Shown here one piece after another: positions 21,613 through 22,264 of a stretch of 64,000 nucleotides of DNA; the first letter of the stretch is position 1; every line of letters starts with the position of its first letter. The stretch is from Actinomycetota bacterium (lineage in GTDB: Bacteria; Actinomycetota; Acidimicrobiia; Acidimicrobiales; UBA10347). The stretch is from positions 110,865-174,864 of the forward strand of contig JBCCIC010000008.1 of assembly GCA_039028435.1 (NCBI GenBank). Direction: 5' to 3'. The notes beneath the pieces were generated by a model, which was not told the DNA's origin, ran no database searches, and saw only the letters and a list, made by a program, of their open reading frames with translations. The translations under genes and the position numbers were made by a program.

Positions 21613-21650
21613 TTGACACGGGCACGTATATGCGTGACATATATACGTCA
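21613..21650. promoter_or_regulatory. AT-rich promoter/operator region between divergent genes
   Basis: TTGACA at 21613-21618. Perfect inverted repeat ACGTATAT (21624-21631) / ATATACGT (21641-21648) ending just before ATG 21650. No clean -10 hexamer found. Confidence 0.6.
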
Positions 21651-22264
21651 TGAGTATCCATATGAAATGGCCGGAGCACGACCGGGTGATCGACGTCGAC
21701 GAGTGGATCGAGAAGGTCGAAGCCGCCGTCGCCGGCGGCGCCGTGGCGTTGGCGCTGTCGGACCTCGACGAGTTCGCCCGGGTCAACGACGAACTCGGCC
21801 GCGAGGTCGGCGACAAGGTCCTCGACGTGTGGATCCGGACCCTGGCCGGATCGCTCCCCGACGACGCGATCATCGGCCGCATCGGCGGGGACGAATTCGT
21901 GATCGCGTTTCCCAACGCCTCCGCCGAGAACGCGCTGATCCTCCTCGAGGAGGTGCGGACCCATCTGGCCGCGCACCCGGTCGAGGGGTGGACCGTCGGC
22001 GCCACGTTCGGCATCGCAGCCCGCCCGCCGCACGCCGACGAGGTCGCCGAGCTTTTCCAGCGGGCCAACGAAGCGCTCGCCCGAGGCAAACGCGAGGGCG
22101 GCGGTCGGGTCGCGATCTGGGTCGAGGAGAAGATGGTGCTGAAGAGCAACTACTACAGCCGGGCTTCGCTCGATCGGCTGAGCAAGCTCGCGGGCAACCT
22201 CGATCGCACCGAGGCCTCGCTGCTCCGCGAGGCCCTCGACGACTTGTTCAAGAAGCTGCGCTGA
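21650..22264 (+). CDS. GGDEF-domain protein fused to a C-terminal ribbon-helix-helix-like domain
   Basis: DLDEFARVNDELG..VGD and RIGGDEF motifs. Tail MVLKSNYYSRASLDRLSKLAGNLDRTEASLLREALDDLFKK has a strand-helix-helix RHH pattern. Confidence 0.82.
   Translation: MSIHMKWPEHDRVIDVDEWIEKVEAAVAGGAVALALSDLDEFARVNDELGREVGDKVLDVWIRTLAGSLPDDAIIGRIGGDEFVIAFPNASAENALILLEEVRTHLAAHPVEGWTVGATFGIAARPPHADEVAELFQRANEALARGKREGGGRVAIWVEEKMVLKSNYYSRASLDRLSKLAGNLDRTEASLLREALDDLFKKLR

Follow-up and report, generated by a model that had tools for sequence, protein, structure and literature searches.

Diguanylate cyclases are normally understood as sensor-driven enzymes, in which a further domain has to pair two GGDEF domains before they can catalyse the reaction. 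In PleD, WspR, DgcZ, DosC and SadC dimerisation is provided by an N-terminal receiver, coiled coil or sensor that is joined to the enzyme through a DxLTGLxNR turn, and most of these proteins also carry an RxxD I-site. Ribbon-helix-helix (RHH) proteins such as Arc, CopG, PutA and the RHH antitoxins repress transcription. The antitoxins (TacA, ParD, RelB, CopA and VapB) autorepress by binding, through an N-terminal RHH domain, to a palindrome within the promoter of their own gene, and PutA of Escherichia coli, a flavoprotein of proline catabolism, represses its own promoter and the put genes and leaves the DNA for the membrane. CdbA from Myxococcus xanthus is an RHH nucleoid protein that is also a receptor for cyclic di-GMP (c-di-GMP), in which c-di-GMP and DNA compete for the interface formed by the ribbon and the helix-1/2 loop (PMC7156744). 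Here we analyze a stretch of 64,000 nucleotides from an Acidimicrobiales genome (assembly GCA_039028435.1, contig JBCCIC010000008.1, positions 110,865 to 174,864; hereafter the window) and in it a gene whose product, P0001, has a GGDEF domain fused directly to a C-terminal RHH tail. We consider it probable that P0001 is a self-contained, autorepressing, RHH-dimerised diguanylate cyclase module. The domain identities, a model of the tail dimer, a conserved palindrome that occurs once in the genome, at the promoter of the gene, and the conservation of the ribbon and of the nucleotide-site residues were all computed here.

The gene and its domains lie at the following positions of the window:
21650..22264, + strand: GGDEF-RHH gene P0001, 204 codons plus stop.
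21734..22102, + strand: GGDEF domain, residues 29-151 (Pfam PF00990, TIGR00254, structure model and Foldseek).
21884..21898, + strand: GGDEF motif, residues 79-83 (read in the sequence).
22130..22261, + strand: RHH tail, residues 161-204 (Pfam matches, models and conservation).

The 204-residue reading frame is as described in an earlier note on this DNA, which was made from the letters alone. Its GC content (0.68, with GC3 at 0.91) is similar to that of the window (0.67). Among its best 120 relatives in a 90%-clustered collection, all are 199-214 residues long and 68-78% identical to it, with a query coverage of 95-100% in 119 and 91% in the remaining one; because these relatives match in length, identity and near-full coverage, P0001 is not a chance reading frame. 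At the level of 50%-identity cluster representatives, members of the family are mostly 200-235 residues long, and the tail is included in the alignment (through query residue 198 or beyond) in 68 of the best 150. An alignment of 27 diverse members identified the tail as the most conserved part of the protein, with the pattern KMVLKSNYY...L.RL..LA....RTEAsLLREALDDL, and about a third of these distant representatives have a degenerate GGDEF motif alongside a conserved tail.

Since no stretch of the wide family alignment was conserved enough to serve as the query for a search of loci, the nine closest sequences were used instead, and a scan of one genome per species with these yielded confirmed relatives in 225 species genomes. 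The best 80 comprise metagenome-assembled genomes of Acidimicrobiales and Acidimicrobiia together with Deinococcales; the cultured carriers among them are Deinococcus marmoris, D. frigens, D. saxicola and D. caeni, and Trueperaceae are also present. A full-length orthologue with 54% identity was found in 2 of 40 relatives of the window's genome, both from other families of the same order, and this query detected none in the eight same-genus genomes searched (completeness 71-94%). The ESM Atlas holds clusters of 1965, 91 and 82 members labelled GGDEF + RHH_3, commonest in Deinococcota, Bacillota and Chloroflexota, with RHH_3 on 40-92% of the members. Some members of the family depart from the simple two-domain plan. 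Five of 370-390 residues (P0123, P0127, P0133, P0134 and P0136) have two tandem GGDEF domains ahead of the same RHH tail, while P0179 has a FliG_C domain (45 bits) after the tail and P0191, P0208 and P0254 have a fragment of the FlhA/FHIPEP cytoplasmic domain (52-102 bits) in that position. The extensions could come from fused gene calls; if not, they hint that in some lineages the family is connected with the flagellar apparatus.

The GGDEF domain of P0001 is matched by Pfam PF00990 with E 3e-21 and 76.3 bits (cut-off 23.8) and by NCBIfam TIGR00254 with 84 bits (cut-off 37.4). The structure model, with a predicted local distance difference test (pLDDT) score of 91, adopts the GGDEF fold; its best Foldseek match is 6eib (E 7.5e-14, template-modelling score 0.86 on the target, root-mean-square deviation 1.6 over 150 columns), followed by PleD, SadC and DosC, and matches to active GGDEF domains lie at E of about 1e-13. 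P0001 thus shares both the fold and the motif with the sensor-coupled cyclases. As the earlier note had read, RIGGDEF (residues 77-83) and the upstream acidic and asparagine residues (D38-L-D40, N46-D47) are intact, as is D55, and the canonical FKxxNDxxGH is changed to FARVNDELGR (FK to FA, GH to GR). The same note had reported that both the N-terminal turn and the I-site are absent, and this also held. The Pfam match covers residues 29-151, corresponding to profile positions 30-159 of 161, and since it starts only at position 30 the DxLTGLxNR turn is missing; the RxxD expected five residues before GGDEF is replaced by PDDA (residues 70-73). Neither loss is peculiar to P0001. Position 70 is proline in 74 of the 78 orthologues compared and position 73 is alanine or serine in 74, and the turn is absent throughout the close clade. 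Among distant members, RxxD is present in some (P0160, P0184, P0191) and the DxLTGLxNR turn in others such as P0151, P0154 and P0184. In contrast to the sensor-coupled cyclases, the close clade of P0001 therefore has no DxLTGLxNR turn, no I-site and no sensor, and its only other domain is a C-terminal RHH of the DNA-binding type. As the turn and the I-site are missing across the family, their absence does not have to imply an inactive enzyme. The usual role of the DxLTGLxNR turn is to couple the GGDEF domain to an N-terminal dimerising helix, and its loss makes sense if dimerisation moved to the C-terminus.

The residues of the nucleotide site are well kept in the orthologues. D38, D40, N46, D55, GGDE, K147 and R153 are each kept in 73-78 of the 78 (GGDE in 76, with tyrosine or phenylalanine as the fifth motif residue in 74, and K147 in all), which argues for selection on nucleotide binding or catalysis. 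We take D38, E82, N46 and D55 to be the equivalents of the metal- and guanine-binding residues D327, E370, N335 and D344 of PleD, and K147 that of PleD K442. Two other positions are divided. Position 43 is alanine in 29 orthologues, lysine in 21 and glycine in 15, and position 151 is arginine in 40 and glycine in 33; P0001 has A43 and G151; in PleD these positions presumably correspond to K332 and R446, residues in contact with the phosphates or the transition state. Only the window's subclade has lost the FK lysine and the AKxxGRN arginine, and in it RGKREGGGR replaces RAKxGRN and is invariant across about 25 species, while the Deinococcales orthologues look canonical (DLDHFK..ND..GH, GGDEY, RAKREGRGR). 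Judged from these residues, catalysis by P0001 itself has about an even chance, and for the Deinococcus orthologues the chance is higher.

This pattern is what brings in a first alternative, that P0001 is a nucleotide-sensing one-component regulator, in which the GGDEF domain of the subclade would no longer catalyse but would use its former active site to bind GTP or c-di-GMP, thereby tuning DNA binding by the RHH tail. The subclade has lost the FK lysine (alanine or glycine at 43) and the AKxxGRN arginine (G151) and has kept N46, D55, D38 and E82; the derived and invariant RGKREGGGR would fit a new, selected ligand-binding function, and the degenerate GGDEF motif behind a conserved tail in about a third of the distant representatives points the same way. 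However, the Deinococcales proteins, which retain FK, GH, RAKREGRGR and GGDEY, share both the tail and the palindrome described below, so that the function common to the family needs no catalytic loss, and there is no RxxD I-site at which c-di-GMP could bind. Together with the genomic distribution of the palindrome, considered below, this leads us to regard a pure sensor as unlikely.

The C-terminal tail, whose sequence from nucleotide 22133 is MVLKSNYYSRASLDRLSKLAGNLDRTEASLLREALDDLFKKLR, is laid out in the models as a strand at about residues 163-169 (VLKSNYY) followed by helix A (171-184) and helix B (188-203). It is joined to the last GGDEF strand (RVAIW) by a linker of only about four residues, and in the full-length model the GGDEF fold is followed by an extended low-confidence stretch at about 157-170 and then by the two helices. 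A Pfam scan of 29 tails from the family at E<=1 found Antitox_RHH (PF20605) in all 29, RHH_3 in 23 and RHH_1 in 10, with best E-values of 8.9e-7 and 2.9e-7. The tail of P0001 scores 12 bits against RHH_3, under its cut-off of 21.6, while six distant relatives exceed that cut-off with 23.6-29.3 bits. Modelled as a homodimer, residues 153-204 reached an interface score (ipSAE) of 0.70, with 0.69-0.71 over three runs, where the best of three controls had 0.02; the runs had at least 98% of contacts in common and a partner pLDDT of at least 82. In the calibration of the method this mark was reached by 20 of 30 proteins that had been solved as pairs of one chain and by 1 of 23 that had been solved as single chains; as the tail was modelled from our own alignment, these counts apply only approximately, and the homodimer pass may reflect likeness to known structures, RHH dimers being solved already. 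The contacts (166:166, 164:168, 164:167, 167:165, 195:195 and 192:196) place S166, in the model, at the centre of a ribbon of two antiparallel strands and pack the B helices of the two chains against each other. A structure search with the tail model returned mainly RHH proteins (TacA/TacA1, YiiF, the PutA RHH, NikR, CopA, Arc, AmrZ, RelB, ParD, CdbA and Omega) with Z of 3.3-4.5, and Foldseek placed the PutA RHH first (probability 0.97), then CopG and Arc. Within the ribbon, the 78 orthologues show no variation at K165, S166 or N167 and hardly any at Y168 and Y169.

The tail could instead be a helical hairpin or coiled coil whose Pfam matches are noise. The P0001 tail falls under every Pfam cut-off, a profile of the 29 tails has no sequence match in the PDB, and the fold-search scores are not significant alone. 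We nevertheless consider this highly improbable, since relatives pass the RHH_3 cut-off, every one of the 29 tails matches RHH families, the fold-search lists are dominated by RHH proteins, and the dimer model, with a score far above its controls, has an antiparallel ribbon. The earlier note had named a C-terminus that models as a plain coiled coil or helix with no RHH match, in a protein that does not bind DNA, as the outcome that would undo its proposal of a sensor-less GGDEF domain fused to an RHH tail. The models and profile searches showed no such plain coil or helix, and both the fusion and, in the models, the dimeric tail were borne out. The RHH assignment, which comes from sequence profiles and models, is well supported, not proven.

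Comparison with the described systems places the module near PutA, which is likewise an enzyme (proline dehydrogenase and pyrroline-5-carboxylate dehydrogenase) with its own RHH domain. Among the Foldseek matches of the P0001 tail model the PutA RHH stands first (2ay0, 2gpe and 2rbf; probability 0.90-0.97, E 0.23-0.48) and ranks third with VIA at Z 4.5. The two differ in that the RHH is N-terminal in PutA and C-terminal in P0001, that the P0001 enzyme is a nucleotide cyclase, and that its candidate operator is a single 12-bp AT-rich palindrome; the likeness was seen in structure searches with the tail model, and the profile of tails gave no match to PDB sequences. With these differences, PutA is the closest working analogue of the GGDEF-RHH module. 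CdbA is the family's closest link to c-di-GMP, in that an RHH fold is tied to this nucleotide, and the tail model matches its structure 6sbw with Z 3.6 and Foldseek E 1.5. CdbA is a 67-residue, stand-alone, tetrameric RHH protein with more than 500 sites and no enzyme domain (PMC7156744), whereas the RHH of P0001 is fused to a putative ligand-making enzyme and its strong site is single-copy. The RHH antitoxins resemble the tail in that PF20605 is its best Pfam family and many of the structural matches are antitoxins; unlike type II antitoxins, the GGDEF-RHH gene has no toxin or conserved partner gene beside it, and its RHH is C-terminal.

The DNA immediately upstream of the gene contains the elements of a putative promoter and operator:
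21613..21618, + strand: TTGACA, a -35-like hexamer read in the sequence, with a presumed promoter function.
21624..21635, no strand assigned: upstream imperfect AT-rich site ACGTATATGCGT, whose first 8 nt form an inverted repeat with 21641-21648.
21637..21648, no strand assigned: candidate operator ACATATATACGT, which differs from the family palindrome ACATATATATGT by one mismatch and is separated from the ATG by 1 nt.

The layout ahead of the ATG is thus TTGACA-cgggc-ACGTATATGCGT-g-ACATATATACGT-c-ATG, in which the 8-nt inverted repeat ACGTATAT / ATATACGT is 100% complementary; an element like ACGTATAT lies in the -35/-10 spacer of many Acidimicrobiales orthologues, as judged by eye and uncounted. 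The perfect 12-bp palindrome ACATATATATGT was evident upstream in almost all orthologues whose DNA was inspected. For a count, we took 83 loci (L001-L003 and L013-L092) and dropped eight, five with no match to the tail pattern (L002, L003, L045, L060 and L071) and three with too little upstream DNA (L033, L047 and L081); the palindrome was scored in the remaining 75 as the best match within 260 nt around the estimated start, with same-size windows from the same loci as controls. At two mismatches or fewer it was found in 67 of the 75 loci, which belong to Acidimicrobiales and Deinococcales, compared with 7 of 2091 control windows, and at one mismatch or fewer in 50 of the 75 compared with 3 of 2091. 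The loci are distributed as 30 with no mismatch, 20 with one, 17 with two and 8 with three or more, and the controls as three with none, none with one and four with two. The exact copies in three control windows lie away from the gene start (loci L013-L092). In 50 of the 67 loci TTGACA, at one mismatch or fewer, precedes the palindrome by no more than 40 nt, and the modal gap between the two is 18 nt (at 22 loci), the spacing found in the window too. KSNYY and RTEASLLRE are invariant in every tail whose gene has retained the palindrome.

The position of the palindrome relative to the gene varies. In most Acidimicrobiales it ends 1 nt before the ATG, a spacing that points to a transcript with no leader. 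The Deinococcus form (TGACATATATATGTCA) is found about 40 nt ahead of a start led by AGGAGG, and at several other loci the palindrome overlaps TTGACA and is followed by a second related repeat. A sequence that is kept while the promoter geometry around it changes is what would be expected of a protein-binding site and not of a -10 box alone. This bears directly on a further possibility, that the tail is only a dimerisation device and the palindrome a promoter element or the site of another regulator. The palindrome does overlap the expected -10 region of a leaderless Acidimicrobiales promoter, where AT-rich sequence is to be expected, and the FliG_C and FlhA (FHIPEP) fusions after the tail hint at a role in protein assembly. 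Yet the palindrome persists both ahead of the Shine-Dalgarno-led Deinococcus start and over the -35 element elsewhere; it travels with the gene over two phyla with no other conserved neighbour; where exact, it is single-copy in each genome searched; and the candidates for facing the DNA, K165, N167 and Y169, are the most conserved residues of the protein, a conservation that dimerisation alone does not need. We consider this explanation quite improbable.

In the 5,773,866-base genome of the window (66.5% G+C), ACATATATATGT at one mismatch or fewer has one site, 21637-21648, and there are only five ATATATA/TATATAT heptamers in the whole genome. In three of five other carrier genomes the exact palindrome is likewise unique and located at the promoter of the orthologue; in the remaining two the gene's own site has two mismatches, and no site at one mismatch or fewer was found. 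A transcriptional regulon was therefore dropped as an explanation, the genome-wide search having returned only the gene's own site at one mismatch or fewer and three seemingly unrelated sites at two. One of the latter, outside the window at G000:C2:373853 of the same genome, sits in a promoter-like stretch, CTTGACATTCATATGT...GGGCATATGAAGCGACATG, which has an inverted repeat of its own, TTCATATG / CATATGAA, just before an ATG and may be the operator of a different regulator. A strong site that occurs only once means that the module must act through its enzymatic product, c-di-GMP, and not through a regulon. An enzymatic output in turn favors an autoregulated cyclase over the nucleotide-sensing transcription factor, as a pure regulator of itself, with its sole strong genomic site at its own promoter, has no output; the sensor retains some probability for the window's subclade. 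Of the two mechanisms put forward in the earlier note, in which either the RHH or DNA binding switches on a cyclase or a degenerate GGDEF domain senses a nucleotide to control DNA binding, the evidence thus points to a self-repressing enzyme and speaks against a transcription factor of the regulon type, leaving the sensing option alive in the subclade.

Branches of the family with other ribbon sequences were also compared. ACATATATATGT was found at none of 15 loci with a TKTxHY ribbon and none of 28 with PKTxHY; these branches carry other AT-rich inverted repeats near TTGACA, among them a repeat like ATAATATTAT at 12 of 28 PKTxHY loci and 0 of 75 KSNYY loci. As the branches were assigned by a motif-and-start heuristic that classed 47 of 80 metagenome loci, the covariation of ribbon and operator is only suggestive.

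From these features we infer DNA binding, repression, a leaderless start and catalysis, and would picture the autorepressing cyclase as follows. The C-terminal 44 residues would fold only as a dimer, forming the RHH domain, and the ribbon V163-Y169 would read the 12-bp AT-rich palindrome, with K165, N167 and Y169 probably facing the DNA. The palindrome overlaps the predicted -10 region and the start of the gene's own, probably leaderless, transcript, and the weaker adjoining site upstream may hold a second dimer. Binding of the tail at its own promoter would turn transcription off and thereby hold the protein level constant. The same RHH dimerisation would join two sensor-less GGDEF domains through the linker of about four residues, so that dimerisation at the C-terminus would take the place of the N-terminal coiled coil or sensor and c-di-GMP would be made from GTP without an external signal.

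Several observations weigh against this reading. With respect to the enzyme, the FK lysine is Ala43 and the AKxxGRN arginine Gly151 in P0001, the DxLTGLxNR turn is absent, RGKREGGGR is carried by the whole subclade of the window, and the GGDEF motif is degenerate in about a third of the wider cluster representatives. That the two active sites within one RHH dimer can face each other, given a linker of about four residues, is assumed. With respect to the tail, the ribbon segment is a low-confidence coil in the monomer models, and the last 43 residues of P0001 match PF20605 with E 1.7e-4 and 22.1 bits, under the cut-off of 27.2; the fold searches reach Z of at most 4.5 and Foldseek E of at least 0.23, neither of which is significant alone for a 52-residue model, and the 29-tail profile gave no match to PDB sequences at E<=10. 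With respect to the operator, four loci (L035, L036, L040 and L044) lack the palindrome, with five or six mismatches, and four further loci have three; a strict sigma-70 consensus scan of 21400-22500 returned no promoters; and the covariation of ribbon and operator is confounded by base composition and relatedness, besides covering 47 of 80 metagenome loci.

Since the linker has only about four residues, binding to DNA is likely to be coupled mechanically to how the catalytic domains are placed relative to each other, and this coupling is the ground for a bolder reading, a DNA-templated, product-coupled switch in which the cyclase would be active only on the operator and c-di-GMP would release the protein. 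RHH dimers on 21624-21635 and 21637-21648 could bring GGDEF domains of different dimers face to face, and c-di-GMP could then compete with DNA for the ribbon, as in CdbA, freeing the protein. We hold this reading to be quite improbable. If true, it would be a one-gene circuit coupling enzyme activity, DNA occupancy and the protein's own synthesis; such a switch could serve to generate pulses of c-di-GMP or to hold it at a set point, and activation by DNA would be a first among cyclases.

The survey of architecture and gene neighborhoods that the earlier note had proposed showed a widespread family and no conserved neighbor gene. When six neighbor genes in the window (as seven query pieces, with the CMD gene as two) were searched by tblastn, none was found beside orthologues except for an SDR-like match at four loci, and all-against-all clustering of the flanking open reading frames of the orthologous loci revealed no neighbor in more than 16 loci and none that was toxin-like. 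The gene found at 16 loci is CMP/dCMP-deaminase-like (HAE...PCxxC motif) and lies downstream on the same strand in 14 of them. In about 10 Deinococcus loci groES-groEL is divergent from the GGDEF-RHH gene, and the shared intergenic region holds the inverted repeat TTGAGT-N7-CTCAA, which we take to be an HspR-type repeat. As no neighbor is conserved, the only partner inherited with the palindrome is the GGDEF-RHH gene itself. Within the window's genome the tail is single-copy: a tblastn search with it returned no other copy, the sole match being a generic RHH-like open reading frame at E 0.28.

The divergent upstream gene in the window, on the - strand at 21104-21568, is CMD/AhpD-like and has an in-frame TGA at 21389-21391, within C57-P-T-[TGA]. 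Read with TGA as selenocysteine (U), it gives one 154-residue protein with a Pfam CMD match of 50.1 bits across the TGA. The genome encodes tRNA-SeC(tca), and an 8-bp GC-rich hairpin starts 15 nt after the TGA, with an ordinary folding energy (z -0.18). On this sequence evidence the gene is a candidate CxxU selenoprotein. Some long GGDEF-protein frames with a single in-frame TGA also occur, in the window's genome at G000:C4:22453-22866 and in several relatives; these could be further selenoproteins, given the tRNA-SeC, or frameshifts, or two adjacent genes.

Full-text literature searches, whose scope excluded subscription-only papers, found no published characterized example of a GGDEF-RHH fusion, in agreement with the earlier note, which knew of none; the architecture is, however, not new to databases, where the domain pair is already catalogued automatically (ESM Atlas GGDEF + RHH_3). 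What is new here is the conserved palindrome at the gene's own promoter and the proposal of an autorepressed cyclase for an uncharacterized, widespread family. The predicted operator is short, exact and single-copy, which makes binding, repression and the interplay of DNA, GTP and c-di-GMP accessible with one protein and one oligonucleotide, and the family is large, spans several phyla and includes Deinococcus strains that are harmless and in culture. If the proposal is true, these proteins would join PutA as a second class of enzyme that carries an RHH domain for autorepression. For the control of sensor-less cyclases, the family suggests a solution in which a DNA-binding tail that recognizes the promoter of its own gene may take care of both dimerisation and dosage.

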